From an uncultured Desulfobacterales bacterium (GTDB lineage Bacteria > Desulfobacterota > Desulfobaccia > Desulfobaccales > Desulfobaccaceae), in NCBI GenBank assembly GCA_964428565.1, contig CAYRYV010000013.1, positions 1 through 64,000 of the forward strand: a stretch of DNA of 64,000 bases, given 5' to 3'. Both the position numbers and the translations under genes were made by a program. Below the pieces are notes generated by a model. It did not search any database. It was given only the letters and a program-made list of their open reading frames with translations, and was not told the origin of the DNA. Shown here one piece after another: positions 1,525 through 22,879 of the stretch (positions are counted from its first letter, which is position 1; each line of letters starts with the position of its first letter).

Positions 1525-1763
1525 ATCTGACGCAGGTGAATCTGGCCCAGTTGCCCATCGGCAAAGCCGGACGGATCGTCCGCCTGGAGGCCCAGGGGCC
1601 CCGCAAAAGACGCCTGATGGACATGGGGGTGATCGTCGGCCAGCAGGTTCAGGTGGAAAAAGTCGCGCCCCTGGGCGACCCCCTGGAGGTCATCATCAAG
1701 GATTATCGGCTCTCGCTGCGGAAAATCGAAGCCGAAAGCGTCATGGTGGAGGTGTTGCCATGA
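1521..1763 (+). CDS. feoA: FeoA family protein, second copy
   Basis: MNLTQVNLAQLPIGKAGRIVRL...IIKDYRLSLRKIEAESV. ATGA overlap with the upstream feoA and with feoB. Confidence 0.8.
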   Translation: MNLTQVNLAQLPIGKAGRIVRLEAQGPRKRRLMDMGVIVGQQVQVEKVAPLGDPLEVIIKDYRLSLRKIEAESVMVEVLP

Positions 1764-3952: not shown

Positions 3953-3958
3953 CCCATC

Positions 3959-4099
3959 ATGATCGATACCTTGTTGGCCGGCGCCATCATCATCGGCGCC
4001 CTCTATCTGCTCTACCGCTCCCTCTGGAAAAAGCGGGGCTATTGCCCGGGATGCGCTTCCCCAACCTGCCCGGTAAAACGGGAAACGACAAACACCTGA
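3959..4099 (+). CDS. FeoB-associated Cys-rich small membrane protein (46 aa); not in the ORF track
   Basis: MIDTLLAGAIIIGALYLLYRSLWKKRGYCPGCASPTCPVKRETTNT: one TM helix plus a CxGCxxxxC tail; AGGAGG 10 nt upstream; directly after feoB. Confidence 0.7.
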   Translation: MIDTLLAGAIIIGALYLLYRSLWKKRGYCPGCASPTCPVKRETTNT

Positions 4100-4295
4100 T
4101 TCAGCCTGGACGAATTAGGCGCCTGCGACAAGGAGGATAAAAAGGAGGATAAATCGGAAAACCAGGTGGATGCAGTAAGGTTTTGGGATCCGGTGCCTGC
4201 AGGTGCATCCTGCCCATCCCTGAATATGGCTGGAGAGCCGGCAGCCGTGCCGTTCATCAGACTCAGGCAGCGACAAAACACAAGGAGGAAACGTC

Positions 4296-5042
4296 ATGAA
4301 AAGGTTGTTAATGGTGACCATCGCTGGTGTTTTCCTGATTATGACTTTCAGCCTGGCGGGAGCGGCTCAGGTTATAGTGGACGCCCCGAGTACGATAACT
4401 GTGGATGGCGTCCCCTACACCCTCGTGAGCCCGGCACCCGACTACAGCGGCCTCATGTGGGAGGAGATTCCCGTCGGGAAAGCCTGTCTGTGCAAGATGT
4501 CGGCCTTCCGGGCCCTGCAGGCGTTGGGAACCTTCCTCTCCCTCAGCGAATTCTCCAGCGCCCAGCTAAGTATCGTCACCGGCTGGAACACCCATGGTCC
4601 CGAAGAACTGTTCGTGGATAGCCTGACCTGGGTGAAGGGGACAAATTTCGCCTACGCTGATCCCATAACCTCAGGCTCTCTGTTGACCCTGGCGGACGCC
4701 TGGTACGAATTCACATATTCGGGGGTCATCTACAGGGTTGCCCATGATTCTTTCAATTACCGCTTTGCGCACGTTGAGACTCATGCCGGCTATCACCCGG
4801 ATTGGGATTTCTTCGACTACCGGCTCTTTATTCAAACCACCGGCGGCTCGACACCTGAAAAGGATTATTTCAGCAGTGTCATCAGACCGCAGATTGTCGC
4901 CAATTTCAGGGGCGAAACTTGGTTCGAGGTGAACGCGGTGCCGATTCCCGGTGCGGTCTGGCTGCTTGGTACGGGTATCATGGGGTTGGCTGCCAGGCGC
5001 TGGAGGATGGCCCGCCGCGATCAAAACGGTAGCTCGACCTGA
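4296..5042 (+). CDS. Secreted protein with a C-terminal PEP-CTERM-type sorting signal (exosortase substrate), in a lower-GC islet
   Basis: N-terminal signal peptide; C-terminus VPIPGAVWLLGTGIMGLAARRWRMARR (VPxP + TM + Arg cluster); good SD AAGGAGG. Confidence 0.7.
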   Translation: MKRLLMVTIAGVFLIMTFSLAGAAQVIVDAPSTITVDGVPYTLVSPAPDYSGLMWEEIPVGKACLCKMSAFRALQALGTFLSLSEFSSAQLSIVTGWNTHGPEELFVDSLTWVKGTNFAYADPITSGSLLTLADAWYEFTYSGVIYRVAHDSFNYRFAHVETHAGYHPDWDFFDYRLFIQTTGGSTPEKDYFSSVIRPQIVANFRGETWFEVNAVPIPGAVWLLGTGIMGLAARRWRMARRDQNGSST

Positions 5043-5093
5043 CGGGGATGGTAAACGGATAACCCCGCCCAGCAAGCACACAGGAGACTCGCC

Positions 5094-5300
5094 ATGGTGA
5101 AAATGGCTCTGAATTTACTGGCCCTGGAGCAGGAGATTAAAAACCTCCGGAACTATATGAATCAACTGCGCCGGGACTCTCGGTCTGGTGACGCCGGTCC
5201 GGTGACCAGCCACCTCCAGGACCGTTTGGACCTCATGGACGCCCACCTGCGCGCCGCCCTGACGGCATGGCCGCAACTAAGCCTGGACTCGCCGGTGTAA
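5094..5300 (+). CDS. Small helical hypothetical protein (68 aa); paralogue of the next gene
   Basis: SD AGGAG; shares the L-E-x-[ED]-[IV]-[KR]-x-L and HL-x-D-x-LD-x-x-D/H-x-HL pattern with 5390-5599. Confidence 0.4.
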   Translation: MVKMALNLLALEQEIKNLRNYMNQLRRDSRSGDAGPVTSHLQDRLDLMDAHLRAALTAWPQLSLDSPV

Positions 5301-5389
5301 TCCGGCTGCCGCGGCGGAATAGGCCGTCCTCGGGCTCGGCCCACCCGCCCCCTGTTCATTAACCTCACTATATTCGGGAGGAACCGCGC

Positions 5390-5599
5390 ATGGGAAGACT
5401 CATCGATGACCTGCTGCACCTGGAGGCGGACGTCAGACACCTCCATGAAGACGTGGAACACATGGAAAAAGACCTGTCGGGACTCGAACAGACCCTGAAC
5501 GTCAGGGATCTCGGCGATCACCTGCGTGATTTGGACCAGCACCTCCATGATGTCCTGAGCCACGTGGGCCATATCCGGATGGAAACGGAAACCAAGTAA
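5390..5599 (+). CDS. Small His-rich helical hypothetical protein (69 aa)
   Basis: SD GGGAGG; HLHEDVEHMEKD and HLRDLDQHLHDVLSH motifs; paralogous to 5094-5300. Confidence 0.4.
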   Translation: MGRLIDDLLHLEADVRHLHEDVEHMEKDLSGLEQTLNVRDLGDHLRDLDQHLHDVLSHVGHIRMETETK

Positions 5600-5673
5600 A
5601 ACAGCTCTCCGGAGCCGGCGTTGTCTCGGCATGGAGCCGCCGGCTCCGGGAGCATGTGGTAAAAGGTGATGCA

Positions 5674-6897
5674 ATGCCGGTTTTTACCAGAATAAGACGT
5701 CCCCTGGCGACCCTGGAGCAGTTTCTTTGTCCTTTGATCGGCACCTGTCTGACCCTCAGGGAACTCCAGAAAATCGCCCGGCGGTTTAAATATGAGGGGG
5801 AGTCCACTCCCTATAACCTCCATACCTGGTTGATCAGGGCTTGTAAAAACTCGCCCCCCGTCGCCAAGTACGTGCAGAAATTCCTCAGCGACAAATATCG
5901 CCCCATCATGCGGCGGCTGGACGAATTCGAGGGCGAGGCCTTGCTCCCCGCCTGGGAAGAGGCGGTGCGGGAAGGTCAGGTGGCCGGAGCCTTCTGGGCT
6001 CTGCTCACCCGCCTGGATGTCCCCGACGCCGTCATTGAGCAGGTCTTCGGGGAGGTCCACATGATGTCCCACCTGCAGGCGTCCGAGGTCCGCACCGAAC
6101 TCCAGGCCTTTGACGCCCTGCGCCGGGACCGCGACCAGTTGGCCCGGCGCCTTCACAAGACCAGGAGCAATCTGGAAGACCAGCGGTCCCGGAGAGAGGA
6201 ACTGCGTCGCCGCCTGGTCCACCGGGAAACCGAAGTCCGGCAGCTCCGGCGTCAACTAACCCAGACAGACAAGGTCCTGCAAAGCTATCAAGATGCCGGG
6301 GTCCTCACCCGCCTGGAGACGGAAAACCAGACGCTGCACCGGGAAAATAAGGACCTGCGGGCCCGCCTGTCCCAGGAACGCCTCCTCCGGGAGAAGCTCG
6401 ACCAGCGCCTGGCGCGCCTGCAGGAGAGGGCCCAGCAGCGGCGCTCCCGCATTCCGACGCCCGCTCCCCGGGGGTGTCCGCACCTCTGTCCCCGGACTCT
6501 GGCCGCGGCTTGTCCCCTGGGGCCTGAAGCTCAGTGCCCCGGCTTGTGTAATAAAAACATCCTGTTAGTGGGGGGATTGGAGAAACTGGTGCCCTTTTAC
6601 CGGGGTGTGGTGGAAGGCGACTTCGGCGCCTGCTTTCTCCGCCATGACGGCGACTTCCATCAGGGACAATCCTGTCTCGCCGGGCTGGTCAAAAAGGCCC
6701 ACGCCGTCATCTGCCCCATCGGCGTCAATAGTCACGACGCCTGCCTGTGCGCCAAGAAGCTTTGCAAGAGGCTGAACAAACCCTGTGTCATGTTGCCCAC
6801 GGCCGGTCTGGGAGTCCTGAAGCAGACCCTCCAACAACTGGCGGACAAAGAAGCCGCCCGGGGGGATACTGGGCCGGATCTGCCCCCGATCCAATGA
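5674..6897 (+). CDS. Coiled-coil protein with a C-terminal DUF2325-like Cys-containing domain
   Basis: Long Arg/Glu-rich coiled-coil in the middle; C-terminal ILLVGG...CPIGVNSHDA...CK pattern typical of DUF2325; ATG 5674 after AAAGGTGA. Confidence 0.5.
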   Translation: MPVFTRIRRPLATLEQFLCPLIGTCLTLRELQKIARRFKYEGESTPYNLHTWLIRACKNSPPVAKYVQKFLSDKYRPIMRRLDEFEGEALLPAWEEAVREGQVAGAFWALLTRLDVPDAVIEQVFGEVHMMSHLQASEVRTELQAFDALRRDRDQLARRLHKTRSNLEDQRSRREELRRRLVHRETEVRQLRRQLTQTDKVLQSYQDAGVLTRLETENQTLHRENKDLRARLSQERLLREKLDQRLARLQERAQQRRSRIPTPAPRGCPHLCPRTLAAACPLGPEAQCPGLCNKNILLVGGLEKLVPFYRGVVEGDFGACFLRHDGDFHQGQSCLAGLVKKAHAVICPIGVNSHDACLCAKKLCKRLNKPCVMLPTAGLGVLKQTLQQLADKEAARGDTGPDLPPIQ

Positions 6898-9385: not shown

Positions 9386-12325
9386 TCAAGCCGACCGGAG
9401 GAACTCCTTCACCAGACGATCCCATCCCAGTTCCGGGCACTGCCCGTAAACGTCGTCGATGAGCGAGCCACCGGCCTGGAGGGTGGCGCCCACCGACGGT
9501 TCCAGCATCCCCAACAGCCGTGAGGTTTCCTCTTCGATCCAGGCCGCCGAGCCCTCGCCGGAGATCAGGGTATCCAGGTCCGGCCTGAGGTTGATGGCGG
9601 CGACGAGCATCATCCAACCCTCGCCGTAGGGATCGTCGTGGATCAGCCCGGGTCTCTTGAGGATCTGGGGGTTCACCTCTTCAATGACGCCAGCCACCGG
9701 CGCCAGCACCCCGGCCCGTTCATTCCGGCGCAAAAGCGCCAATGCCGTCTTCTCCCGGCGAATCTCTTCGCCGATGACCGGCATCTGGATTTCTTCGCTG
9801 GAACCCAGGAGCTTTTGGGAAAAGTCATCCATGCCGATGCGCACCCGCCCGCCGGACTCCAGGGCGACCCAGGTATGGCCCAGATGCAGGTAACGGGACG
9901 TCGGCACCTTGATCCCGAAGACTTCTTCGAGTTGCTCCACCAGCTTTTCCAGGCTGACGGCGATTCCCTCGTAGGACTGGACCATGCCGGCGGACTCGGG
10001 GGCCCCCTTCAGCAGCAGGTCCAGGGCGTTTTTCAAGAAATGCCGGGGCAGGAAGGCCGTTCCCGGCCGGACCCGGTTGGTGACCACGGCCGTGGCGGTG
10101 ATCACGCTCTCCGGGGTTGAGGTCTTGAAACGTTCTCCCGACCGGATGCCCAGGTTTTGGGCGTCCTCGGCGCTGATCTCGACGAGCACTTCCGGCTGTT
10201 CCCGGTATTCAAAGGTATAGGTGTAGGCCGGGGGGACGGTCCGATGCTCTTTGAAGGCCGTCCCGGTGGCCAGCCACACCGGATAGGCGTCGTCCGTGGT
10301 CGCGGCCAGGCGGCGCAGGTTGATCATCAGTTCATCCACGGCGTCGATCAGGTCCCCCGGGGCGTTGGCGGCCAGGGAGTGGAAGAGAAGCCGGCTGGGA
10401 GCGATGCCGGCCTCCGCCAAGAGCTCCTGAACCTGCTCCACCCCCCATTGGGCGCACAGATTGCCATGAGTCGATTTACAGTTGTCCTCCGGGCAGGAGA
10501 GCACCAGCACCCCGTCTGCTCCGGCAGTGAAGGCCTCCAGCAAATACGCCGGATCGACCTTGCCGGCGCACGGCACCTTGACGGGGGTAAAGCCCAAGGG
10601 CAGGGAGGCGCTGTGCAGCTTGACGGCGCTCTGATAGGCCTCCCAGGCGGAATTGCGGCACATATACGCCACGATCCGGGGGCCTAATTGGGGATCGAAG
10701 GCCGTCAGCTGCGCCGCCATCTGCTCATCGGTGAAGTTCCGGAGCTGAATGGCGTCGTTGGGACACTGGCTGGCGCAGATGCCGCAGCCCTGGCACGCCA
10801 GTTCATTGATCACAGCCCGATTGTCCCAGGTGATGGCCCCGTGCGGACAGAAGCGGTAGCAGGTGAGGCAGAACACGCACTTGCCCCGGTCCACTACGGC
10901 CCGCCCCTGTAGAGCGACGGCCTGACCCTGACCCAGAAGGACCTGGATGTCATTGATGGCGGCGCTGATGTCGGTGTCGGTCTCCTCCCGGTCCATGATC
11001 CCCCGGCCCGGCCCCAGGACATATACGCCCCGCCGGGGCGTGGCCACCGGCGTATGGTGGACGTTGCCGGACTGGAGAAAGCCCCCGGCCCCCTGGGGCA
11101 GACGCAGCCGCGCCGCCAGCCCGGCGTTTTCTTGGGCCCCCCGGCAGTGTTCGTCATACACCACCAGATTGGCCTTCAGGCCGAGACGCTCCCGGATGCT
11201 GGGTTCCAGAAACTCCACCAGCAGGCCCTCGTCCGCCGCGCTGATGGTCGGGCAGTCATTGAGCTTGATGACCACCAGACCGGCATCCTGGGCGGCCTGG
11301 AGGGCCCGCTGTAGATCCGGCCCCGCCACCTTGGTGCTGCCCACCAGCAGATACACCTTGCTGCCGGCGTCCAACAGGCGGGCCGACGCCTTCAAGACCC
11401 GCTCCAGGGCCAGGGGATGGCTCTCCCCCGCCAGTCCCAGCAGGACGGTGACGGTTTCCGGTTTATCGGTTGCGGATTCTCCGGCCAGCTGCGCTTCCAG
11501 CCGGGTCAGGGAGATCACTCCCGGGTGATCGGCAATGCCGAAACACCGGGGGTCGTCCTGCAGGTGCAGCTCCGGGGCGAGCACAATCGCCCCCACCTGC
11601 TCGGTGAGACATTCCTGCGGGGTATCCAGGCGCACGGTGAAATTTCCGGTGACGCCGCTGACATCCCTAAGCCGGGCGTCGCAGATCACCTTGATCAGGG
11701 GCTGCTCCTGGACGTTCCGGATCAATTGGGCGGTAGCGTCCCCTGCCGCGGCCTCCTCCGCGTATTCCCAGGGGAGCGGCGCAAGTTGGGGGTGGGGGCC
11801 CGCCAGCAAAACCGGATAGCTCAACTCCGCCAGCTCCCGGGCAGTCTGCAGGGCGGCGCCGGAATCGCCCCAGATCAGCACCTGCCGGTTGACGGCAATC
11901 GCTTGCGGGGTGATGGGACTGGCCAGCCCCGCCTGGGAGGCGGCCTGCCGGATCATCTCCAACCCTTTGGCCCTCCGGCCGCTTTTTTCCGGGTGTTCTA
12001 AGGCCGCGGTCAGATCAACCTGCAGGAGATACTCCGGGTTCAACCCCAGCTCTCTCCGCAACAGGCGGGTCACCCCCGCCCCGCGCCGCTCCGGGTCCTG
12101 GGCCACCAGGAGCACCGGATTCAGTTCCTGCTCCCGGCCAAGGAAGGCGCGCACCTCCTCTTCCTGCTCGGCTGCCGGCCGGCCGGTATCCATGGACAGC
12201 ACCCGGCAGTTCGGCAAGCTGGCCACCGCCTGGAAAAAGTCCTGGGCATCGAGTCCGGCGCCGGCAAGCTCCGGGCCGGACATAAGCAAGATATTGAGCG
12301 GTCTTAACGAATCGGCTAGAGTCAT
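9386..12325 (-). CDS. 979-aa multidomain oxidoreductase: degenerate N-terminal region, FAD/NAD(P)-binding HdrA-like region, 2x[4Fe-4S] ferredoxin, MvhD-like domain, molybdopterin-dinucleotide-binding-like domain, C-terminal glycine-cleavage-H-like domain
   Basis: CVFCLTCYRFCP...CQGCGICASQCP (ferredoxin); RIVAYMCRNSAWEAY...KVPCAGK...LSCPEDNCKS (MvhD); GTAFLPRHF (MopB C-terminal-like); PYGEGWMMLV (GcvH-like); SD AGGAGG. Confidence 0.75.
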   Translation of the reverse strand: MTLADSLRPLNILLMSGPELAGAGLDAQDFFQAVASLPNCRVLSMDTGRPAAEQEEEVRAFLGREQELNPVLLVAQDPERRGAGVTRLLRRELGLNPEYLLQVDLTAALEHPEKSGRRAKGLEMIRQAASQAGLASPITPQAIAVNRQVLIWGDSGAALQTARELAELSYPVLLAGPHPQLAPLPWEYAEEAAAGDATAQLIRNVQEQPLIKVICDARLRDVSGVTGNFTVRLDTPQECLTEQVGAIVLAPELHLQDDPRCFGIADHPGVISLTRLEAQLAGESATDKPETVTVLLGLAGESHPLALERVLKASARLLDAGSKVYLLVGSTKVAGPDLQRALQAAQDAGLVVIKLNDCPTISAADEGLLVEFLEPSIRERLGLKANLVVYDEHCRGAQENAGLAARLRLPQGAGGFLQSGNVHHTPVATPRRGVYVLGPGRGIMDREETDTDISAAINDIQVLLGQGQAVALQGRAVVDRGKCVFCLTCYRFCPHGAITWDNRAVINELACQGCGICASQCPNDAIQLRNFTDEQMAAQLTAFDPQLGPRIVAYMCRNSAWEAYQSAVKLHSASLPLGFTPVKVPCAGKVDPAYLLEAFTAGADGVLVLSCPEDNCKSTHGNLCAQWGVEQVQELLAEAGIAPSRLLFHSLAANAPGDLIDAVDELMINLRRLAATTDDAYPVWLATGTAFKEHRTVPPAYTYTFEYREQPEVLVEISAEDAQNLGIRSGERFKTSTPESVITATAVVTNRVRPGTAFLPRHFLKNALDLLLKGAPESAGMVQSYEGIAVSLEKLVEQLEEVFGIKVPTSRYLHLGHTWVALESGGRVRIGMDDFSQKLLGSSEEIQMPVIGEEIRREKTALALLRRNERAGVLAPVAGVIEEVNPQILKRPGLIHDDPYGEGWMMLVAAINLRPDLDTLISGEGSAAWIEEETSRLLGMLEPSVGATLQAGGSLIDDVYGQCPELGWDRLVKEFLRSA

Positions 12326-12789: not shown

Positions 12790-14052
12790 TCAGGCCATCG
12801 GGGTCCCGCTCCTTCCCTCCAGATACTGGCGCACCTGCTGAACCGAACGGGTCGCCTGGGCGATGCATTCCACAATACTTTGCGGACCGGTGGCGGTCCC
12901 GGCCAGAAAGACCCCGGGAGCTTCGGTAACGCCGCCCGCCGGGCTGTCCTTCAGGAAGCCATCGGGGGTCTTCTCCAAATGCAGCATCTCCGCCAGCTTG
13001 TCATTGTCCAGGCCCGGGGCGATACCCACCGCCAGCACCAATAGATCCACCACCCGGAATAGCCCCTTCCCCGTAGTCTCGTCCAGGAAACGCAGCCGTA
13101 AACTCCCGTCCGCCGTGGCCGTCAGGTCTCCGGGGAGGGCCCGGATCAACTCGATTTCCCGTCTCACCGTGGCCTCGAACTCCTGGGGGTCGGGCCCGAC
13201 ATTTTGCAGGTCCATGTAAAAAGTGGTCACCTTGCACTCCGGCCACCGATGACACACCAGGCGGGCCAGACGCAACCCATAGGCGCAGCACACCCGGGAG
13301 CAATACGTGTGCTCCCGGTCACGGCTGCCCACGCACTGGATGAAGGCCAGATGCCGCACCGGCCGGCCGTCGCTGGGTCTCACCAGAATCCCCCCCTGAC
13401 GGACCATTTCCTCCAATTCCTCGCCCGTGATGATGTTGGGCAACTGGTAATTGGTGTAATCCCCCCGGGCGGGAGGCGGCGCCGGTTGATAACCGGTGGC
13501 GACGATGAGGCTCGGGGTCTCCAGTTCCGTCACGGTCTCGGCCCGGCCCAGGTCGATGGCCTGGGTGGGGCAGATATCCTGGCATCGGCGGCAGGAGCCG
13601 TCCTGAAAATACCGGCAGGCGCCCGGATTCACCGCATAACGGGGATGATTCTCAGCGGAGGCGGCGCTGACGACGCCTCCCGGAGCCGGGCACTCCTCCA
13701 GGCACAGGCCGCAATTCGTGCAGAGGTGCGGATCAATGACCTGGGGCTGGGACTTCAGGGTCAGGTGCAGCAGACCATTCTCGGACCGGCTGGCCATCAA
13801 CTCCGTATGAGGATAAAAGGTGAGGCCCGGCGCCGCCATCAGGTCCCGCAAACCCTGCTCGACCCGGCAGGCCCCGCATTTCTGGCAGGCATCGGTGGCC
13901 TTGCAGCCGAAGCTGGCGGCCCGGCCGCCGAAAAAGGGGCTCTTCTCCACCAGGACCGCCGGGAGTCCCGCCCGGCTTAACTCCAGGGCCGCCGTAATCC
14001 CGGTAATGCCTCCGCCCAGAATCACCACCGGATTGACTTTGTCGTTCTTCAT
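12790..14052 (-). CDS. hdrA: Heterodisulfide reductase subunit A-like flavoprotein (short HdrA)
   Basis: GGGITGITAALEL FAD motif, multiple CxxCxxC ferredoxin motifs, FIQCVGSRD...CSRVCC HdrA signature. Confidence 0.85.
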   Translation of the reverse strand: MKNDKVNPVVILGGGITGITAALELSRAGLPAVLVEKSPFFGGRAASFGCKATDACQKCGACRVEQGLRDLMAAPGLTFYPHTELMASRSENGLLHLTLKSQPQVIDPHLCTNCGLCLEECPAPGGVVSAASAENHPRYAVNPGACRYFQDGSCRRCQDICPTQAIDLGRAETVTELETPSLIVATGYQPAPPPARGDYTNYQLPNIITGEELEEMVRQGGILVRPSDGRPVRHLAFIQCVGSRDREHTYCSRVCCAYGLRLARLVCHRWPECKVTTFYMDLQNVGPDPQEFEATVRREIELIRALPGDLTATADGSLRLRFLDETTGKGLFRVVDLLVLAVGIAPGLDNDKLAEMLHLEKTPDGFLKDSPAGGVTEAPGVFLAGTATGPQSIVECIAQATRSVQQVRQYLEGRSGTPMA

Positions 14053-14070: not shown

Positions 14071-14955
14071 TCAGACACCGGCCTTCTCCAGGACAAGAGC
14101 CATCAGGTCGCCCCGCCCCCGGGCCTTGACATAAACGCCGTCCGCAAGTTTTTGCCCTTTGATCTCCTTGAGCAGACGTCCGGCAAGAGCGGCGCCTTTC
14201 TTCAAGACTTCCTCGGGATCACTGTCGGCCAGTTCCTTCACCATCTCCGGCGGCAGTGAATACACCTTCCGGTGACTACCTTGACTGGCCTCCTCCACTT
14301 CCGCAGCCTTGGGGACCTTGACGCAGGCCAACAGCTTGACGCCCTGGAGATCCACCAACTTCCTGAATTTTTCGAGCTTCTGGAGGTCAAAGACAGGTGC
14401 GGTGACGAAAAATTCGGCGCCCGCCTCCAGCTTTTTCCTGACCTTCAGGAGCTGGGGAGCCACCGGCTCGGCCTCCGGGATCAGGACCGCGCCCAGGCAG
14501 AACTGAGGATTGCCTTTCAGGGAAAGACCGGCGCTGTCATGACCCTCCATCAGCCCCCGGGCGATTTGCAGGAGCTGCACCGAGTCGGCGTCGTAGACCG
14601 GCTTGGCGTCGGGATGATCCCCGAGCGTGACGTAATCGCCGCTCAGGGTGAGGATATTTTCCAGACCCAGGGCGCCGGCCCCCAGGAGATCGCTCTCCAG
14701 GGCCAGACGATTGCGATCCCGGCATGTCATGAGGAGCATGGGTTCTTTACCCGCCTGTTTCACCAGCGCCGCGGCCGCCAGGGCCGAGAGCTTCATCTTG
14801 GCGTGCTCCATGTCCGGGATGCCAAAGGCGGTCACCTTCCCGTCGAGGGATTTCACGGGAGCCAGCATCCCCTCCAGGTCGATGCCCTTGGGGGTTTTTA
14901 CTTCCATGACGATGGGGAACCGGCCGCCCTCCAAAGCTTCCTTAAGTTTACTCAT
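14071..14955 (-). CDS. metF: Methylenetetrahydrofolate reductase catalytic subunit (MetF-like)
   Basis: TIM-barrel MTHFR motifs (FPIVMEVKTPKG..., FFVTAPVFD); start taken at MSKLKEA with SD GGAGAT 11 nt upstream; sits next to metV/hdr/mvhD as in acetogen MetFV-Hdr-Mvh complexes. Confidence 0.8.
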   Translation of the reverse strand: MSKLKEALEGGRFPIVMEVKTPKGIDLEGMLAPVKSLDGKVTAFGIPDMEHAKMKLSALAAAALVKQAGKEPMLLMTCRDRNRLALESDLLGAGALGLENILTLSGDYVTLGDHPDAKPVYDADSVQLLQIARGLMEGHDSAGLSLKGNPQFCLGAVLIPEAEPVAPQLLKVRKKLEAGAEFFVTAPVFDLQKLEKFRKLVDLQGVKLLACVKVPKAAEVEEASQGSHRKVYSLPPEMVKELADSDPEEVLKKGAALAGRLLKEIKGQKLADGVYVKARGRGDLMALVLEKAGV

Positions 14956-15628
14956 GGACGACATATCTCCTCTTGTAAGCCGGGTGGATGACGGTACCCG
15001 GGGTAGTGCCCCGCCCGTGGGGATGGAGCGGTAGGATCGCATCGATCTGCTCCAGCCTTCCCTGCTGTTCCAGCCTGGCATAGATTTCACACCAGGCGCA
15101 CTCCCGGTCCGGATTCACCTCGCATTTTCCCTGGACGTTGCCGCCGCAGGGGCCGTTGAGCAAGCCCTTGGGACACATGGTTTGCGGGCAAATCCCCCCG
15201 GTAACCCCCAGGTAACACTGATGGCAGGCTCGGCAGCGCTCGGTATACCACCCCGCCTCTTCGTTGACCCCGATGAAGGTGGTGTTGAGGGCCGGGAAGA
15301 CCGGTTTCATGCCGGACATTGCCGCCAGGAACTGCACCCCGGCGCCGCAGGCCGTCGAAATGACTACGTCGTAGTCGGCCACCGCGTCGCTCAGGGGCTG
15401 AATAAACTCCCGGTCGCACTGGCGCTCCACCGTCATCTCGCCGATCTTCGGGTGCTTGCCTTCCTGCCCCCAGGCGAGCTTCAGTTGCGAAGCCAACAGC
15501 CCCACCTCTTTTTCCCCGCCTACCAGGCAAACCGCCACACAGGTGCCGCACCCGGCGATGAGAATCTTCTCATAGGGCGCCACCGCCGCCTTGATCTCCG
15601 CAAAAGGCTTTCGTTCCGCGATAATCAT
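14948..15628 (-). CDS. metV: MTHFR small subunit MetV-like (MTHFR C-terminal zinc-ribbon-like domain) protein
   Basis: Cys-rich (GCGTCVAVCL..., CRACHQC...CPQTMCPKGLLNGPCGG) like MetV; ATATGA overlap with the upstream mvhD stop. Confidence 0.7.
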   Translation of the reverse strand: MIIAERKPFAEIKAAVAPYEKILIAGCGTCVAVCLVGGEKEVGLLASQLKLAWGQEGKHPKIGEMTVERQCDREFIQPLSDAVADYDVVISTACGAGVQFLAAMSGMKPVFPALNTTFIGVNEEAGWYTERCRACHQCYLGVTGGICPQTMCPKGLLNGPCGGNVQGKCEVNPDRECAWCEIYARLEQQGRLEQIDAILPLHPHGRGTTPGTVIHPAYKRRYVVHE

Positions 15629-16089
15629 ATTTGCACCGCCAGTTCTTGTTCTTCCGGGACCATGGCCTCCGGTGTCCAGTTTGGGTTCAGGGGACTGGGC
15701 CCCAACCGTTTGACTCTTTCCACCATTTCATTCACTGCTATCACCCACTTGGGGGCGTCTGAAGCAGCCACCTCATACATGATCAGGCGTTCTGAGCCCA
15801 GACCGCATTCATCCAGCAAGTTCTGGCCATATTCCACCCGTTCGCGGGCCCGCAGATTCCCTTCCAGGAAATGGCAGGTGCCCGCCTCGCAGCCACTCAC
15901 CATAACGCCGTCGGCCCCGGCCTCGAAACCCCTCAGAATATGCAGGATGTCAATCCGGCCGGTGCACAGGTACTTGACGATCCGCACGTTGGGCGGATAC
16001 TGCATCCGGGCCGACCCCGCCATATCCGCGGCCGTGTAGGTGCAGTAGGTGCACACCAGGGCCAAAATCTTAGGAGTAAATTCTGTCAC
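15625..16089 (-). CDS. mvhD: Methyl-viologen-reducing hydrogenase delta subunit family protein (MvhD), Cys-containing copy
   Basis: ILALVCTYCTYTAADMAGSARMQYP...YLCTGRID...GCEAGTCHF MvhD hallmarks; start GTG 16089 chosen by alignment to the paralogue (the track's ATG 16110 lacks an SD). Confidence 0.8.
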   Translation of the reverse strand: MTEFTPKILALVCTYCTYTAADMAGSARMQYPPNVRIVKYLCTGRIDILHILRGFEAGADGVMVSGCEAGTCHFLEGNLRARERVEYGQNLLDECGLGSERLIMYEVAASDAPKWVIAVNEMVERVKRLGPSPLNPNWTPEAMVPEEQELAVQI

Positions 16090-16195
16090 TTTTTCTCGAC
16101 TCCCACACATGGGGTGACCGTCGGCCAGGGCTCGCAGAGGGCGCTAAATATGACCATATATTGCACGTCCAGGTCAGGCCGTTTCGACATGGCCT

Positions 16196-16657
16196 TCAGG
16201 TTTGCACCGCCGGTTCTTGTTCGCCCGGAACCACAGCCCCCGGTATCCATTGCGGACTCAGAGGACTGGGGCCCAGAGCCTTGACTTTTTCCGTCATTTC
16301 CTTAACCACGGCAACCCATTTGGGGGCATCGGAGGCGGCGATCTCATAGAATGCCAGACGCTCGGCCCCCAGGCCGCATTCTTCCAGTAAGTGCCGTGCA
16401 TATTCCACACGTTCGCGAGCTCTGAGATTTCCTTCCAGGAAATGGCAGGTGCCGGCCTCTCAGCCACCCACAAATATGGCGTCGGCCCCGGCCTCAAACC
16501 CTTTTAAAATATGCAGGATGTCAATCCGGCCGGTGCACAGGTACTTGACGATCCGTACATTGGTCGGATACTGCATCCGGGCCGACCCCGCCATATCCGC
16601 GGCCGTGTAGGTGCAGTAGGTGCACACCAGGGCCAGTATCTTCGGGGAAAATTCCAT
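16196..16657 (-). CDS. mvhD: MvhD paralogue with in-frame TGA (16460-16462) at the position of the conserved Cys (GC-EAGTCHF); proposed selenocysteine-containing MvhD, 153 aa read-through
   Basis: Track ORFs 16460..16657 and 16196..16408 are in the same frame and ~80% identical to the downstream mvhD on both sides of the TGA; the TGA replaces a TGC codon; SD GAGGAGA before ATG 16657. Confidence 0.6.
16427..16443 (-). other. Candidate SECIS-type hairpin (AUUUCCU-GGA-AGGAAAU) starting 16 nt 3' of the in-frame UGA
   Basis: 7-bp perfect stem seen directly in the sequence; the same region in the Cys paralogue has one wobble pair, so this is not discriminating on its own. Confidence 0.25.
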
Positions 16658-16666
16658 CTCGTCTCC

Positions 16667-19600
16667 TCAACTTCCGGCGCTGACGCCGGCCACCGGCCAG
16701 GATTGGCCGATGGCGCCGATTTTGGCGATGAATTGCTCATCCAGGTTGTGGTTCACGACAATGGCCTTCCGGGGACAGGCGCTGGCGCAGTTGCCGCAGC
16801 CCTGGCAGGCGGCGGGGTCAATGAACACCACGCCTTCGCTTTCATCCATCTTGGGCACCCCATAGGGACAGGTGCGGGCGCAGGTAAGACAGGCGACACA
16901 TTGTAACGGATTCACCTGCGCCACGGATCCGGCCACATACATCTCCTCCTGGGATAGCACCCCCAACGCCCGGCCGGCCGCACCCTTGGCCTGGGCCAGA
17001 CTCTCTTCCAAGAACTTGGGACTGTGCGCCAAGCCGCACAGGAAGACGCCGCTGGAAGCGAAATCCAGGGGCCGCAATTTCAAGTGGGCCTCCATGAAGA
17101 AACCGTCGGCATCAAAGGGCAGCTTGAAGATCTTGGCAATTTCCCGGCTCATGGGGTGAGGCCGGATGGCTGCCGACAGGACCAGGTAATCAGCCGTGAG
17201 CGCCAGCTCCGCCTGCAGCATTTGATCGAAGACCTTTATCTGCAGCCCCCGGTCCGTGGCCTCCACCTCCGGCTTCCGCTCCGGATCAAAGCGGACAAAC
17301 TGGACTCCCAAATCCCGGGCCTTCTTGTAGTACAACTCCTTGAGGCCGTAGGTCCGGATATCCCGGTAGAGGATGAAGACCTGGGCGGCGGGATTGCTCT
17401 CCTTGATGGTTATGGCGTTCTTGATGGCCTCGCCGCAACAGGTGCGGCTGCAGTACTGGTGTTCCGGCTCCCGGGAGCCGACGCATTGAATCATCACTAC
17501 CTTGGGCACGGACCCTAATCCCTGGGGGCGGTCCGCCAGCATGGACTCCATTTCCGCTTGGGTCAGGACCCGGGAATCCTGGCCATAGAGATACTCCTCC
17601 GGCTGATATTCCACCCCGCCGGTGGCGATCACCGCCGCGCCGTAATCCACCTCCCAGCGGTCATCGCCCGCTGCCAGGGTGCTGTGGAATTTGCCGATAC
17701 TGCCGGACACATCCACGACCCTGGTATTGACCCGCCAGTCGATGCGGGGATGGTTTTCCACCCGGCGCACCAGCTCCTCGAGATAGGGTTGAATTTCATG
17801 GCCTTCCAGGGTGCGTTTCATCCGCCTGGCCAGGCTGCCGCCCAGCCGGTCGCCCATCTCCGTCAGATAAACCTGGTAACCGCTGTCGGCAATAGTCAGC
17901 GCGGCCGTCAAACCGGCCAGGCCGCCACCCACCACCAGGGCCTGCTGGCTCACCGGGAAGAGCAGATCGTCCAGAGGCCGTAAAATCGCCGCCCGGGCCA
18001 CCGACATCTGCACCAGTTCCTTGGCCTTGTCCGTGGCCAGCTCCGGCGTCGCCTGGTGGACCCAGGAGTCCTGATCCCGGATGTTGGCCATCTCAAACAG
18101 GTATTTGTTCAAACCGGCCTTCCGGAGGTTCTCCTGGAACAGGGATTCGTGGGTGCGGGGGCTGCAGGAGGCCACCACAATCCGGTTCAGGTTTTCGCGT
18201 TCAATCACCTCGCGCATGTTGTCCAGCGAATCGGTGGCGCAGGTGAAGGTATAGTGGTCGGCGTACACCACGTGGGGGAGAGTCCGGGCGTAATCGGTCA
18301 CCGCCGCCACATCCACCACCGCGGCGATGTTGATGCCGCAATGGCAGATGAAGACGCCGATCCGGGGCTCTGCGCCGCTGACCTCCTGCTCCGGGGGATA
18401 TTCCTCCTTGGACAGCAGGGTGCCCCGGGCTTCGGCGAGCAGGGCCGCGGCGGCTCCGGCCGCCCCGGAAGCCTGGCCCACGGTCTCCGGGATGTCTTTG
18501 GGAGACTGGAAGACGCCGCACGTAAAGGCCCCCGGCCGCGAGGTGGAAACCTGTTCCAGGGGCGGACTCACGACAAAGCCCCAGCGGTCCGTGTCGATGG
18601 CGCAATGGGCTGCCAGTTCCTTGGTGGCCGGATGGGGGACCAGACCCACGGAGAGCACTACCAGATCAAAAACCTCGGTTTGTATGTGGCCGGATTCATC
18701 GGCGTAACTGAGCTCCAGGTTCTGCGTACTGGGATCCTGGGCCACCCGGGAAACCATGGCCCGGATATAGCGTATCCGGTGGTCGGTCTTGGCCCGTTCG
18801 CAGTAACGGTCGAAGCCCTTCCCCTGGGCCCGTAGGTCTATATAAAAGATGGTGGATTCGATATTGTGGTCATGCTCCTGAGCGATAATAGCCTGCTTGG
18901 TGGCATACATGCAACAGACGTAGGAACAGTATTCCCGGCCGCAGGAGGCGTCCCGGGAGCCCACGCACTGGATCCAGGCCACCCTCCGGGGCGGTTTGCC
19001 GTCGCCGGGGCGCAACACATGGCCGTCATAGGGACCGGTGGCCGACAGGAAACGTTCGAACTGCAGCGAGGTCACGACGTTGGGATAGCGTCCCCACCCA
19101 TATTCGGGTTTGAGGCCGGCATCGAAGGGCCGGAAACCCGGGGCCAGGATCATCGCCCCCACCTCGAGTTGCCGGGTCCGGGGCTGCATGCTGTGGTCGA
19201 TGGCCCCGGCCTGGCAGGCAATCACACACTGCATACATTCTGAGCACCCGCCGCAATTGAGACAGCGTTCCGCTTCGGCCACGGCTTGGGCTTCGGGGTA
19301 GCCTCGGTTGATTTCCTGAAAGCCTTTGACCCATTCGGCATGAGGCAACTCCGGCATTACCGCCCGGCGCCGGGGAGTAAGTTTGTCCGGCACGGGCAGC
19401 CAATTGCCTTGTTCCGGGGGAACGGGCCGCAGGGGCAGTTCCCGCCCTTCCCGCAGATCCTGACCGTTGAGGTAGCGGTCGATGGACAGGGCGGCTTCCC
19501 GGCCGGCGGCCACCGCGGCGATGGCGATATAGGGACCGGAAACCACGTCGCCGCCGGCAAAGACGCCCTCCCGGCCGCTGGCCAGGGTCACCGGGTCCGT

Positions 19601-21211
19601 TTCGATGAGACCCCGCGGGGTAAGGTTGATGCCGTCCGCCTCGGTGAGAAAAGCGAGGTTGGTCTTCTGGCCGATGGCCATAATCACCACATCGGCATTC
19701 CGGGTGGTGGTTTTGTCTTCCCGATAGGTGGGAGCGAAACGCCCCTGTTCGTCAAAGACCCGTTCCACGGCCTTCAGTTCGAGGCCGCTGACCCGGCTTT
19801 CCCGGCCCAGAATCTGCTTGACGCCCCACCGATGGATAATCTCGACCCCTTCCTGTTCCGCCTCGGCCACTTCCCAAGGGGAAGCCGGCATCTCTTCCCG
19901 GGTTTCGAGGGCGATCAGAGTGACCTTGGCCCCTTGGCGCCGGGCCGTCCGGGCAACGTCCATAGCCACGTTGCCGCCGCCGATAACCGCCACCTGCTTG
20001 CCCTGAAAATCGAACTGCTGACCGGAAGCGGAATCCTTCAGGTACTCGACGCCCCAAAGGACTCCCTGAGCATCGGCCCCGGGCACCGGCAGACGGATGG
20101 AATCCTGGGCCCCCACGCCGATAAAGACCGCCCGGAAGCCCTTCTTGGTGAGCAGATCGTCTATGGTGTTGCCGGGGCCGCCGATGGGCGAGTTATACCG
20201 GATGTCCACTCCCAGGCGCTGGATGTAGTCAACTTCCCGTTGGAGGACTTCCCGGGGCAGGCGATACTCGGGGATGCCGTAGCGCAACCAACCGCCGGCT
20301 TCGGCGGCAGCCTCGAAAATTACCGCTTTATAGCCTTGGCGAGCCAGATGATAGGCGCAGCTTAAACCGGAAGGACCGGCCCCGATAATAGCCACGGACT
20401 CCTCCCGCGGCTGGATTTCAGGGATCGGCAACGCCTGCCAGTCCACGGCGTCGGCCACAAACCGCTTCAGGTTGCAGATGGCCACGGGCTCGTCCACTTC
20501 CTGTCGCCGGCAGTCGGACTCGCAGGGATGGGGACAAATGCGGCCGATGACGCCGGGCAGCGGCAGCCGGTCCATGATGAGGGACAGGGCCTCGGGAAAT
20601 TTCCCCGCCTTGATGAGCTGCACGTAGCCCTGCACGCTCAGATTCGCCGGACAGGCCCGCACGCAGGGAGCCCGGTCCAGTTTCTTGATGGCATAGTAGG
20701 CCGGAATCGCCTGGGGGAAGTGCCGGTAAGCGGCATGGCGCACGCCCAGGCCCTCATCAAAGGTCGAGGGCAGTTCCACCGGGCAGGCCTCCGAACAAGC
20801 CCCGCAGGCGTTGCATTTGGCCATGTCAATATAGCGGGGCTCCTGGCGAAGGGTGATGGTGAAATGGCCCGCCTCGCCCTCCACGCCGGCAATCTCAGAC
20901 TGGGTGACGATCTCAATGTCCGGGTGCCGGGCCACCTCAATAAGTTTAGGGGAGATCAAACAGGTGGAGCAGTCGTTGGTGGGGAAGGTCTTGTCCAACT
21001 GGGCCATGACCCCGCCGATGGAAATGTCTTTCTCCACCAGATAGACCTTAAAACCCGCATTTGCTGCGTCCAGGGCGGCCTGCATACCGGCGATACCGCC
21101 CCCCACCACCATAATGGCGCCGATTTTGGTCTTTGCAGTAGTCATAGATTTTTTTCGTCTGGAATTGGCGTGGGTATCCACTAGTGTAAGTTTTGCCCGG
21201 CGTTTCATCAC
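16667..21211 (-). CDS. Giant HdrA-like flavoprotein fusion (HdrL type): HdrA FAD/FeS domains, a GltD/NfnB-like NAD(P)H-binding domain, and a second HdrA-like module with C-terminal 2x[4Fe-4S]
   Basis: 1514 aa; repeated GxGxxG FAD motifs (VVGGGIAGM, IIGAGPSGL, VIGGGNVAM, VVGGGLAGL), many CxxCxxCxxxCP clusters, HdrA signature CVGSRD...CSxxCC twice; AAGGA SD; TGATGA overlap with the hdrB stop. Confidence 0.85.
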   Translation of the reverse strand: MMKRRAKLTLVDTHANSRRKKSMTTAKTKIGAIMVVGGGIAGMQAALDAANAGFKVYLVEKDISIGGVMAQLDKTFPTNDCSTCLISPKLIEVARHPDIEIVTQSEIAGVEGEAGHFTITLRQEPRYIDMAKCNACGACSEACPVELPSTFDEGLGVRHAAYRHFPQAIPAYYAIKKLDRAPCVRACPANLSVQGYVQLIKAGKFPEALSLIMDRLPLPGVIGRICPHPCESDCRRQEVDEPVAICNLKRFVADAVDWQALPIPEIQPREESVAIIGAGPSGLSCAYHLARQGYKAVIFEAAAEAGGWLRYGIPEYRLPREVLQREVDYIQRLGVDIRYNSPIGGPGNTIDDLLTKKGFRAVFIGVGAQDSIRLPVPGADAQGVLWGVEYLKDSASGQQFDFQGKQVAVIGGGNVAMDVARTARRQGAKVTLIALETREEMPASPWEVAEAEQEGVEIIHRWGVKQILGRESRVSGLELKAVERVFDEQGRFAPTYREDKTTTRNADVVIMAIGQKTNLAFLTEADGINLTPRGLIETDPVTLASGREGVFAGGDVVSGPYIAIAAVAAGREAALSIDRYLNGQDLREGRELPLRPVPPEQGNWLPVPDKLTPRRRAVMPELPHAEWVKGFQEINRGYPEAQAVAEAERCLNCGGCSECMQCVIACQAGAIDHSMQPRTRQLEVGAMILAPGFRPFDAGLKPEYGWGRYPNVVTSLQFERFLSATGPYDGHVLRPGDGKPPRRVAWIQCVGSRDASCGREYCSYVCCMYATKQAIIAQEHDHNIESTIFYIDLRAQGKGFDRYCERAKTDHRIRYIRAMVSRVAQDPSTQNLELSYADESGHIQTEVFDLVVLSVGLVPHPATKELAAHCAIDTDRWGFVVSPPLEQVSTSRPGAFTCGVFQSPKDIPETVGQASGAAGAAAALLAEARGTLLSKEEYPPEQEVSGAEPRIGVFICHCGINIAAVVDVAAVTDYARTLPHVVYADHYTFTCATDSLDNMREVIERENLNRIVVASCSPRTHESLFQENLRKAGLNKYLFEMANIRDQDSWVHQATPELATDKAKELVQMSVARAAILRPLDDLLFPVSQQALVVGGGLAGLTAALTIADSGYQVYLTEMGDRLGGSLARRMKRTLEGHEIQPYLEELVRRVENHPRIDWRVNTRVVDVSGSIGKFHSTLAAGDDRWEVDYGAAVIATGGVEYQPEEYLYGQDSRVLTQAEMESMLADRPQGLGSVPKVVMIQCVGSREPEHQYCSRTCCGEAIKNAITIKESNPAAQVFILYRDIRTYGLKELYYKKARDLGVQFVRFDPERKPEVEATDRGLQIKVFDQMLQAELALTADYLVLSAAIRPHPMSREIAKIFKLPFDADGFFMEAHLKLRPLDFASSGVFLCGLAHSPKFLEESLAQAKGAAGRALGVLSQEEMYVAGSVAQVNPLQCVACLTCARTCPYGVPKMDESEGVVFIDPAACQGCGNCASACPRKAIVVNHNLDEQFIAKIGAIGQSWPVAGVSAGS

Positions 21212-22053
21212 AACAATCCTTTATTCCGCAGTAAAGGCCGGGGGTCCACCAAATGGCGGGCCAGCCAGGCGGCGACCTCCGGGTGCCCCAGGGCCAGTCC
21301 GATCAGTTCGGTGAAATAGAACACCGGCAAGTAATAGTTCTTCCCTGCCTTCTTTGATATGCGGCCCTGGGAGAGGTCCAGATTGGCCTGGCACATCTGG
21401 CAGGCCACCACGAAACACTCGGCCCCGGCCGCCAGAGCCCGGTCATAGAGGCGCCCCACCAGAGTATCAATGAGATCCGGCCGGGCCATCGCCAGGCCGG
21501 CCCCGCAGCAGTCGGTCTTATAGGACCAGTCGAGAGGGTCGGCCTGCAGGACCTGAAGCAGGCGCTCCATATCCTTGGGGTTTTCGCAATCCACCTTATC
21601 CGTGATCTCCGGAGGCCGGGATGCCAGGCAACCGTAGTAGCCCACCGCCTTCAGACCGGTGAGGGGCCGTACCGTCTTCTGTTTCAGGATGGACAGAAAT
21701 GACTCCTGGGAGAGAAATTCCAATAGATCCCAGATCTTTGTCCCATTTTTCCGACCAACCGGAGTCTCTTGCCGGCGGTTCTGCTCCTTTTCGGCGGCCT
21801 TGAGGCGGTTGAAGCACAAGGCGCAGGGGACCACCAAATCCATACCGGTTTGCCGGGCCAACGCCAGGTTGCGAGCCGGCAGTTCCAAAGAGAGTCGATG
21901 GTTGATACTGTGAGCCGCGCTGGCGCCGCAGCAGTTCCAATCCTCCAGTTCCACCAACTGCAGGTCCACGAGGGGAGCGACAGCGGCAATGGAGGCAGCA
22001 TAATCCGCCGCAGTGCCTTCCAAAGAACAGCCGGGGTAATAAGATACCTTCAT
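21208..22053 (-). CDS. hdrB: Heterodisulfide reductase subunit B (two CCG domains)
   Basis: YYPGCS...CCGxxx and YYGC...CCGAG motifs; start at MKVSYYPGC (ATG 22053) after AAGG. Confidence 0.8.
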   Translation of the reverse strand: MKVSYYPGCSLEGTAADYAASIAAVAPLVDLQLVELEDWNCCGASAAHSINHRLSLELPARNLALARQTGMDLVVPCALCFNRLKAAEKEQNRRQETPVGRKNGTKIWDLLEFLSQESFLSILKQKTVRPLTGLKAVGYYGCLASRPPEITDKVDCENPKDMERLLQVLQADPLDWSYKTDCCGAGLAMARPDLIDTLVGRLYDRALAAGAECFVVACQMCQANLDLSQGRISKKAGKNYYLPVFYFTELIGLALGHPEVAAWLARHLVDPRPLLRNKGLL

Positions 22054-22060
22054 AAATGCC

Positions 22061-22642
22061 TTAACCCCCTGCACGTTTAAAGATTTCGTTGATTTCATCC
22101 CGCCCCTTGAGGGCTGGCGGGCCAATCGGGCGTAAGCGGCCGCGTTTGAAGAGGGCCCAACCCAACTTGGCATTTTCCCAAAGCTCCTGAAGTTGCGGTC
22201 GTCGCCGAAGTTGATACAGGGTGAAGCGGCGCATCAACGCCACCTCCGGCAAGCGGCCGCCAGCCCGACGGAGGCTGTCCAGGAAGAAGCGCTGGAAGGC
22301 CGCCACCTCCGGCTGGTCGACGGCTTTGCCCTGCCGAATCGCCTCCTCTTTGAGCCAGTCCATGACCCCGGCGATGTCAATGCCGTTGGGGCAGCGAGTG
22401 GTGCAGGTGACGCAGGAGGCGCAGACCCAGATGGTCCGGCAGCCCAGAAGCATCTCCGTCTGACCCAGGAGAGCCAGGCGTATGACCCGGTCCGGGAGCA
22501 GATCCATGGCGAAGGTCAGGGGACAACCGGCAGAACATTTCTTACATTGAAAGCAGGCGGACAATTGAATAGCGGCCTCTTGAGAGAGACGTTCCTGCAG
22601 TGAAAATGCCGGGGCCAGCGGTTGGTTGATATTGAGTTCCAT
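22061..22642 (-). CDS. hdrC: Heterodisulfide reductase subunit C (2x[4Fe-4S])
   Basis: CFQCKKCSAGCP and CASCVTCTTRCP ferredoxin motifs; SD AGGAG 9 nt before ATG 22642. Confidence 0.8.
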   Translation of the reverse strand: MELNINQPLAPAFSLQERLSQEAAIQLSACFQCKKCSAGCPLTFAMDLLPDRVIRLALLGQTEMLLGCRTIWVCASCVTCTTRCPNGIDIAGVMDWLKEEAIRQGKAVDQPEVAAFQRFFLDSLRRAGGRLPEVALMRRFTLYQLRRRPQLQELWENAKLGWALFKRGRLRPIGPPALKGRDEINEIFKRAGG

Positions 22643-22879
22643 GAAGACAGGCTCCTGATTATCGGTTGGCATCTATGCCCGGGTCAGACCCCATACATAA
22701 CACAAAACAGATTTCAGGCTGCCCGGGGCTTACAGGGCCTTAAAAATTCCTCCGGTCCACTTGGACCCGGACAAAATATATTGTTAATGCAATTTCGTTG
22801 CCATAATTTAAATAGCCGTGATATCGGCATCTTCATTATCAACAAGATGTCTGCCGGGACCGGAATTTGTCGAAATAAC

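Follow-up and report, generated by a model that had tools for sequence, protein, structure and literature searches.

MvhD/VhuD (PF02662) is among the listed selenoprotein families of prokaryotes (PMC13188914, PMC9312934). According to the available text of PMC2702500, Desulfobacterium autotrophicum HRM2 carries four selenocysteine (Sec)-containing mvhD genes (mvhD1, D2, D3, and D5) beside hdrA/hdrL together with cysteine (Cys) paralogues, and its genome has Sec and Cys paralogues of each Hdr group. The present study concerns a window of 64 kb (positions 1 to 64,000 of contig CAYRYV010000013.1, 63% GC; "the window" is this whole stretch of DNA) from an uncultured Desulfobacterales bacterium, in which two tandem mvhD genes, copy A (16196..16657, minus strand) and copy B (15625..16089, minus strand), lie inside one cluster of hdr and met genes. 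An earlier reading of the same DNA, hereafter the original prediction, had proposed that they form a Sec/Cys paralogue pair. Taken as a whole, the evidence is very probably best explained by copy A being an intact Sec-encoding MvhD gene beside its Cys twin.

As in D. autotrophicum, a predicted Desulfobacterota MvhD selenoprotein is here encoded directly downstream of an HdrA/HdrL-type gene, and the 1,514-amino-acid (aa) HdrA/GltD-type fusion encoded by that gene is of the kind named HdrL in D. autotrophicum. The original prediction was right that MvhD selenoproteins are documented in Deltaproteobacteria (PMC2702500). Unlike the window, the available text of that source describes neither an adjacent Sec/Cys mvhD pair nor a MetVF context.

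VhuD of Methanococcus maripaludis/M. voltae (chain K of 9sfi) shares fold and family with the window protein (phmmer E 8e-39). It likewise has a Cys isoform, VhcD, used under selenium-poor conditions, and methanococci alternate Vhu and Vhc by selenium supply, from genes that presumably stand in separate operons. Sec and Cys paralogues of one subunit in one genome are thus common to both settings, whereas the window pair sits in tandem in one operon and not in separate selenium-regulated units. The original prediction had placed vhuD and vhcD side by side in methanogens, which found no support in the literature consulted, where Vhu and Vhc are described only as alternative isoforms. VhuD carries two Sec residues, one in an N-terminal C-x-x-U and one at the site studied here (U66); at the first of these, the C-x-x-U motif of PMC13188914, the window protein has Cys. 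The partner of VhuD is a hydrogenase or Fdh, and that of the window protein is MetVF. The Sec insertion sequence (SECIS) of archaea lies in an untranslated region, according to the reference list of PMC13188914, in contrast to the hairpin inside the open reading frame (ORF) described below.

BamF, from the class II benzoyl-CoA reductase of Geobacter metallireducens, is also a bacterial Sec-bearing, MvhD-homologous [2Fe-2S] adaptor on an HdrA-like bifurcating subunit. Its Sec19, however, is at the other site (C-x-x-U, a Cys next to the cluster, which is Cys in the window protein), and BamF is more than 100 aa longer, with extra domains. Finally, the set and order of genes (hdrC, hdrB, hdrA-type, mvhD, metV, metF) are those of Moorella thermoacetica, whose HdrCBA-MvhD-MetVF arrangement is described in the available text of PMC5736913 and PMC6085437, where its MvhD is not described as a selenoprotein. 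Unlike Moorella, the window has a large HdrL fusion as its HdrA, two mvhD copies, and two extra downstream genes. Mock et al. reportedly described the HdrCBA-MvhD-MetVF methylene-tetrahydrofolate (THF) reductase of M. thermoacetica in 2014.

Conservation of the in-frame TGA of copy A

Copy A consists of 153 codons with one internal stop. It starts with an ATG located 9 nucleotides (nt) past the hdrL stop and preceded by a GAGGAG ribosome-binding site, and its TGA (16460..16462, minus strand) is codon 66, in the motif G-G-U-E-A-G-T-C-H-F. With U replaced by C, the translation covers positions 1 to 123 of the 123-position FlpD/MvhD profile PF02662 (E 8.5e-46) and matches six solved MvhD/VhuD/ElpC chains (E 1e-40 to 2e-35). 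Beyond the TGA there are no more stops and no frameshifts. Copy B (PF02662, E 1.6e-45), on the same strand and 106 nt away, probably starts with GTG at 16089, although the ORF list uses an ATG at 16110. Aligned to copy A over 16086..15625 without gaps, it is identical at 123 of 154 aa (80%) and 375 of 462 nt (81%), with 33 synonymous and 31 nonsynonymous codon differences, and the codon matching the TGA is TGC (15889-15891, minus strand). The identity of about 80%, the single in-frame TGA opposite the TGC of copy B, and the division of the gene in the six-frame track, where copy A appears as two ORFs of 65 and 70 aa, all agree with the original prediction. A degenerate motif that includes this TGA has a single match in the window and no match in any of 100 shuffles. 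Among 90 candidate TGA codons flanked by long open frames in the window, mostly spurious, only that of mvhD was convincing.

A degenerate DNA pattern fixing TGA in the context G-x-E-x-G-x-C-H-F/Y was run on a one-genome-per-species collection. It matched 106 contig stretches, every one of them an mvhD gene with an MvhD-like open frame on either side of the TGA, in metagenome-assembled genomes (MAGs) of Desulfobaccales, Desulfobacterales, Syntrophobacterales (Thermodesulfobacteriota), Dehalococcoidia, and Anaerolineae. Most of these genomes have no second mvhD copy. Several MAGs hold two or three Sec-type loci (L006+L015, L032+L047+L100, L063+L069, and L039+L060), which implies multiple HdrL-MvhD-MetVF-like clusters per genome. 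In one locus (L036, CAVZSK010000022.1, ~3246-3650), the Sec-type mvhD runs in frame into metV for 267 codons past the UGA, which points either to a genuine MvhD-MetV fusion or to an indel in the assembly of long reads.

None of the retrieved loci or database proteins equals the window sequence exactly; the closest match, with ~84% nt identity over the cluster, is the JGI metagenome contig Ga0228536_1000070 (L229, the same as L208), which carries an orthologous Sec/Cys tandem pair in the order HdrL, two FlpD fragments of 65 and 70 aa (the TGA-containing mvhD), a 153-aa Cys mvhD, metV, and metF. Its copy A (5429-5890) has 89% aa identity to the window copy A and its copy B (6001-6462, starting MEFTPK) 88% to the window copy B, while A-versus-B comparisons across the two loci give 77 to 80%. 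The duplication hence predates the divergence of the two lineages, both of which have retained the TGA. Between the two A copies, the ratio of nonsynonymous to synonymous substitution rates (dN/dS) is 0.115 overall, 0.05 upstream of the TGA, and 0.17 (0.169) downstream, with dS 0.52; the part past the "stop" is under protein-level purifying selection.

These data bear on the reading of copy A as a decaying pseudogene, a redundant duplicate inactivated by a nonsense mutation that would leave copy B as the sole functional mvhD. A functional Cys copy directly downstream, the breaking of copy A into two fragments by standard gene callers, and the failure to find Sec machinery in the 64-kb window would all be in keeping with it. 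However, the same TGA occurs in the orthologous copy A and in 106 other genomes, mostly single copy, the downstream part keeps a low dN/dS and a full-length Pfam match without additional frameshifts or stops, and only TGA-bearing genes show the RNA-level constraint on the hairpin described below. The comparative sequence data already contradict the pseudogene reading, which we consider very improbable. The original prediction had argued from the persistence of frame and conservation on both sides of the TGA that copy A is no decaying pseudogene, and both points were borne out.

The identity of the residue is indicated by homologues. U66 falls on the second "X" (Sec) in chain 9sfi_K, the VhuD of M. 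maripaludis, and its column is the Cys of G-G-C-H-x-G-D-C in 5odc_D, 7bkb_F, and 8rvu_F; an alignment with Sec-containing VhuD, which the original prediction had called for, thus puts Sec on the Cys column of copy B. Among the matches listed, all 119 other homologues have Cys at this column. A reading of the UGA by another route (near-cognate Trp or Cys, or a locally reassigned code) could invoke P0089, a JGI gene call with Trp at this column (…LVGGWEIGDCHFLEGN…) and the Sec-type HFLEGN signature; this Trp probably stems from translation of a TGA with a code table that assigns it to Trp. In contrast, TGA is the ordinary stop of 5 of the 7 cluster genes and of both mvhD copies, so that the code is not reassigned, the column is Cys or Sec in the homologues just described, and a SECIS-like element is conserved. 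We therefore regard decoding by such a route as exceedingly improbable.

A hairpin within the reading frame as putative SECIS

The original prediction had pointed to a 7-bp hairpin 16 nt past the UGA, and it is indeed present as ATTTCCT-GGA-AGGAAAT at 16443..16427. This candidate SECIS apical hairpin, AUUUCCU-GGA-AGGAAAU (16427..16443, minus strand), spans nt 20 to 36 counted from the U of the UGA and is encoded by the codons H-F-L-E-G-N. Its GGA loop begins 23 nt after the UGA and fits the bSECISearch model, which we take to place the loop 16 to 37 nt after the UGA with a G in the apical loop. The gene thus has a within-ORF stem-loop shortly 3' of the UGA with a G in its apical loop.

For comparison, a Sec set of 95 unique TGA-type genes was set against a control of 120 unique Cys-type mvhD genes from metagenomes, retrieved with the same pattern carrying TGY. 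The RNAalifold consensus of the Sec set is exactly the 7-bp helix, at about -5 kcal/mol, and all 95 genes form it at nt 20 to 36. In each pair of the helix, one base is at a fixed codon position and its partner at a wobble position; these wobble positions are frozen in the Sec set: the third base is U for His and C for Phe/Tyr in 95 of 95 genes, A (91) or U (4) for Gly, and U for Asn in 93 of 95, and the Leu codon is always CUG (95/95). In the Cys-type genes the corresponding third bases are T78/C42, C65/T55, A23/C49/G15/T16, and T62/C41, respectively, and the Leu codon is not constrained. Fisher p values range from 1e-11 to 1e-29. Neighboring wobble sites are saturated in the same Sec genes (C49/U46 at the third base of the Cys codon, G33/C30/A29 at that of codon 13), so that shared ancestry cannot explain the frozen helix sites. 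Moreover, U at the Gly wobble position always occurs together with Phe replaced by Tyr (U23-A33 to A23-U33; 5 loci, 4 unique sequences), which reads as a compensatory change restoring the pair.

The constraint extends to the protein. The peptide H-F/Y-L-E-G-N is invariant in the Sec forms only, whereas Cys-type genes have K, I, V, and others at its Leu position, so that the RNA element constrains the protein. Below the apical helix, a possible 2-bp lower helix (Y15-G41, U16-A40) with a 3x3 internal loop (16422..16448, minus strand) emerges from pair counts: pairs 15-41 and 16-40 can form in 85 and 90 of the 95 Sec forms, versus 56 and 55 of the 120 Cys forms. The codon of the Arg 14 codons past the UGA is AGR rather than CGN by 78 to 5 in the Sec genes, versus 20 to 23 in the Cys genes, a bias that fits this short helix. 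A lower helix that may possibly be part of the SECIS is thus weakly suggested. In copy A this Arg codon is the rare AGA (16423..16421). AGA is uncommon among Arg codons here (2.7%), as is GGA among Gly codons (8%), yet copy A has both exactly at the helix sites, whereas copy B has neither.

The last observation also bears on a sequencing or assembly error, in which the true codon would be TGC and both copies plain Cys paralogues. TGA and TGC differ by one base, and the long identical stretches shared by the copies could mislead an assembler. Yet copy A has Sec-type marks besides the TGA (GGA and not GGG in the stem, the rare AGA), and the TGA/TGC pair recurs, with its order unchanged, in an independent metagenome contig, so that an error seems about as improbable as decoding by a non-Sec route.

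Several results weigh against the hairpin as a SECIS and against Sec decoding. The stem is A/U rich and weak, and the minimum free energy z-scores of 63-nt and 101-nt segments around it (+0.75 and -0.5) are not beyond those of shuffled sequences; support for the hairpin hence comes from conservation and not from energy. Rfam returned two tRNAs and nothing else for the window at gathering thresholds, and a permissive scan of 16300-16520 gave noise matches with E of 0.36 or worse. The compensatory change may be a single event, since all its carriers are Anaerolineae/Chloroflexia. Lastly, tRNA-Sec, SelA, SelB, and SelD were not found in the 64-kb window by a tRNA scan and Pfam on 30 further ORFs, nor was tRNA-Sec found in the fetched mvhD loci. 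On the comparative evidence, nevertheless, the hairpin is to be seen as a conserved, RNA-constrained element of all Sec-type mvhD genes.

Altogether, four independent lines (conservation of the TGA, the orthologous pair, the constraint on the hairpin, and the match with the VhuD column) point to the TGA as a Sec codon, and UGA66 of copy A almost certainly encodes Sec. We propose a model in which UGA66 is decoded as Sec during translation, the in-ORF hairpin 16 nt downstream presumably recruiting the SelB/Sec-tRNA(Sec) complex. The product would be a 153-aa MvhD, a small [2Fe-2S] adaptor passing electrons to the bifurcating flavin of the HdrA-type subunit, which would itself sit in an HdrCB-HdrL-MvhD-MetVF complex, a Moorella-type methylene-THF reductase of the Wood-Ljungdahl pathway.

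Within this protein, the five family Cys positions (C-x-x-C, C-T/S-G, and G-G-C-x-x-G-x-C) are C12, C15, C41, U66, and C71 in copy A; copy B has Cys at all five. According to the available text of PMC13580544, Cys16 of M. marburgensis MvhD (C15 here) is an "additional" Cys between the cluster and the FAD, and Sec19 of BamF occupies this same position according to the available text of bioRxiv 10.64898/2026.04.10.717634. U66 corresponds to Cys67 in M. marburgensis numbering, adjoining His68 and Asp71. As the C15 position is the non-cluster Cys among the five, U66, the first Cys position of G-G-C-x-x-G-x-C, would by elimination be one of the four [2Fe-2S] ligands. That this role follows from elimination among five conserved Cys, and not from coordinates, counts against it to some extent.

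Origin and role of the Cys twin

The 106-nt spacer between the copies (16090..16195, minus strand) is a decayed relic of the hdrL 3' end, a probable duplication scar, which in the window and in L229 (5891-6000) still resembles the HdrL C-terminus (L-D-E-Q-F-x-A-K-I). Copy B itself retains HFLEGN and a near-perfect hairpin (15856-15872, minus strand) with one G-U pair and with CGG in place of AGA; in the orthologous copy B of L229 the hairpin is perfect. This relic suggests that copy B probably descends from a Sec-type gene. The pair would thus have arisen by tandem duplication of the "hdrL 3' end + mvhD" unit of a Sec-type ancestor, after which the downstream copy would have exchanged its TGA for TGC. 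Gene conversion between the copies, suspected from their near-identical nt 25 to 150, was unproven and rejected because this segment is equally similar (~88 to 92%) in all four pairwise comparisons, including those between genomes.

Tandem mvhD genes are rare: among 228 loci with an mvhD match, only the L229/L208 contig repeats the Sec-then-Cys order. Another tandem pair, in a Desulfobulbia MAG (L053, CAZDYX010000012.1, 5-863), is Sec-Sec, with the TGA of both genes at the G-G-U-E column; the same locus holds one more TGA-containing mvhD at 4440-4835. In a further locus (L201, Ga0163209_1005036, 3355-4239), a Cys-type mvhD is followed by an mvhD that has Cys at the G-x-C-x-x-G-x-C site and its TGA at C-R-H-U near the N-terminus; hence, both Sec sites occur in bacteria.

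Close relatives that share this cluster carry just one mvhD, of either the Sec type (L036, L076, and L097) or the Cys type (L227, L230, and L232/L233), indicating that one copy is enough for the complex and that Sec and Cys chemistries can replace each other within short evolutionary spans. A neighbor-joining tree, albeit a rough one, also interleaves the two forms; counting of Sec/Cys switches was dropped for that reason. Exchangeability and the sufficiency of one copy together favor selenium-dependent and -independent versions of one subunit. Copy B, cotranscribed with copy A, would then supply a selenium-independent subunit when UGA decoding fails, a backup role to which we give an about even chance; the choice between Sec and Cys would then fall at the ribosome and not at a promoter. 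The sufficiency of a single Sec- or Cys-mvhD in close relatives also counts against the need for a backup.

A bolder and distinctly more tentative proposal is that the pair forms a hard-wired translational selenium switch within one operon, without a transcriptional regulator, in which it would differ from the Vhu/Vhc system of methanococci. In the presence of selenium, UGA66 would be decoded and the complex would receive an MvhD with a selenolate-ligated [2Fe-2S] cluster, which would tune the transfer of electrons to the bifurcating flavin; under selenium shortage, translation would stop at codon 66 and the Cys twin would take the same slot. Another possibility accepts the recoding of the UGA but has both MvhD copies needed simultaneously, either because each HdrA-like half of HdrL docks one MvhD or because one copy serves the 420-aa HdrA-like protein of the same cluster. 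HdrL has several FAD/NAD Rossmann modules, a second HdrA-like protein is encoded in the cluster, the copies are cotranscribed with no internal signals (no promoter-like or terminator-like site on the minus strand of the spacer, in a scan for consensus matches only), and both are under purifying selection. Against this, relatives with the same architecture, including the 420-aa and 979-aa genes, carry one mvhD, Sec or Cys, and we consider a simultaneous need for both copies unlikely.

The gene cluster and its significance

All genes of the cluster are on the minus strand and would be transcribed in the order hdrC, hdrB, hdrL, mvhD copy A, mvhD copy B, metV, metF, a 420-aa gene, and a 979-aa gene; the order hdrC, hdrB, hdrA-type, mvhD, metV, metF is also found in L227, L229, and L230. 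The MetFV-Hdr setting given by the original prediction is thus confirmed, with hdrC, hdrB, HdrL, metV, and metF flanking the pair. The hdrC gene (22061-22672) matches Fer4_8/Fer4_17 and hdrB (21208-22173) has two CCG domains and a true start probably later than the ORF start. MvhD has as its partner the product of hdrL (16667..21211), an HdrA-type flavoprotein that carries ferredoxin domains and an inserted GltD/NfnB-like NAD(P)H module. The two methylene-THF reductase subunits are encoded by metV (14948-15628, PF12225) and metF (14071-14955, with the start set by 294-aa orthologs; PF02219). Distal to these are the gene for the 420-aa HdrA-like flavoprotein (12790-14052) and, last in the cluster, that for a 979-aa fusion of Fer4, MvhD/FlpD, Molydop_binding, and GcvH-like domains (9386-12325), which has Cys at the Sec column of its MvhD domain. 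Both distal genes are also kept in L227, L229, L230, and L233. In L227 (ERZ25039458 contig_84213, 1512-5991), HdrL is found as two overlapping ORFs (649 and 855 aa) and not as one of ~1,500 aa, which may reflect a genuine split, a frameshift, or a fault of the assembly. Elsewhere in the window, an ORF at 31247-32170 (minus strand) joins an N-terminal Fer2 2Fe-2S ferredoxin domain to an adenylate/guanylate cyclase catalytic domain and may encode a redox-sensing cyclase.

MetV adjoins 92 of the 106 Sec-mvhD loci and an HdrL homologue 101 of them; Sec-type MvhD is therefore the standard form of this subunit in HdrL-MvhD-MetVF clusters of these phyla. Copy A is thus the normal MvhD of a widespread HdrCB-HdrL-MvhD-MetVF cluster, and only its adjacent Cys twin is unusual. 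Nothing in the mvhD pair overturns current understanding. Copy A is a fairly ordinary representative of a selenoprotein family that had been described before from sulfate reducers and methanogens. What is new is the conserved in-ORF putative SECIS of this orthologous group with its dual-coding footprint on the peptide, as well as the rare in-operon Sec/Cys twin, conserved in two lineages. Moreover, the probable [2Fe-2S]-ligand position of Sec differs from the C-x-x-U site discussed for BamF and HdrA, and the rare neighboring pair could allow Sec and Cys chemistry to be compared in a natural setting.

Copy A should hence be annotated as one 153-aa selenoprotein, neither a pseudogene nor a pair of fragments, and at least 106 public MAG stretches need this correction too; in these, the gene is usually the sole mvhD of an HdrL-MvhD-MetVF cluster. 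Standard pipelines routinely miss Sec-mvhD, as in the 65- and 70-aa gene calls of L229, and a miscalled mvhD makes the methylene-THF reductase complex of the Wood-Ljungdahl pathway seem incomplete in many Desulfobaccales, Desulfobacterales, and Dehalococcoidia genomes. The invariant nucleotides behind H-F/Y-L-E-G-N, together with the preferred AGR codon for Arg, constitute a simple and specific signature with which to search for such genes. If the translational selenium switch proposed above were true, the pair would represent a natural Sec-versus-Cys experiment at an iron-sulfur ligand of an electron-bifurcating enzyme.

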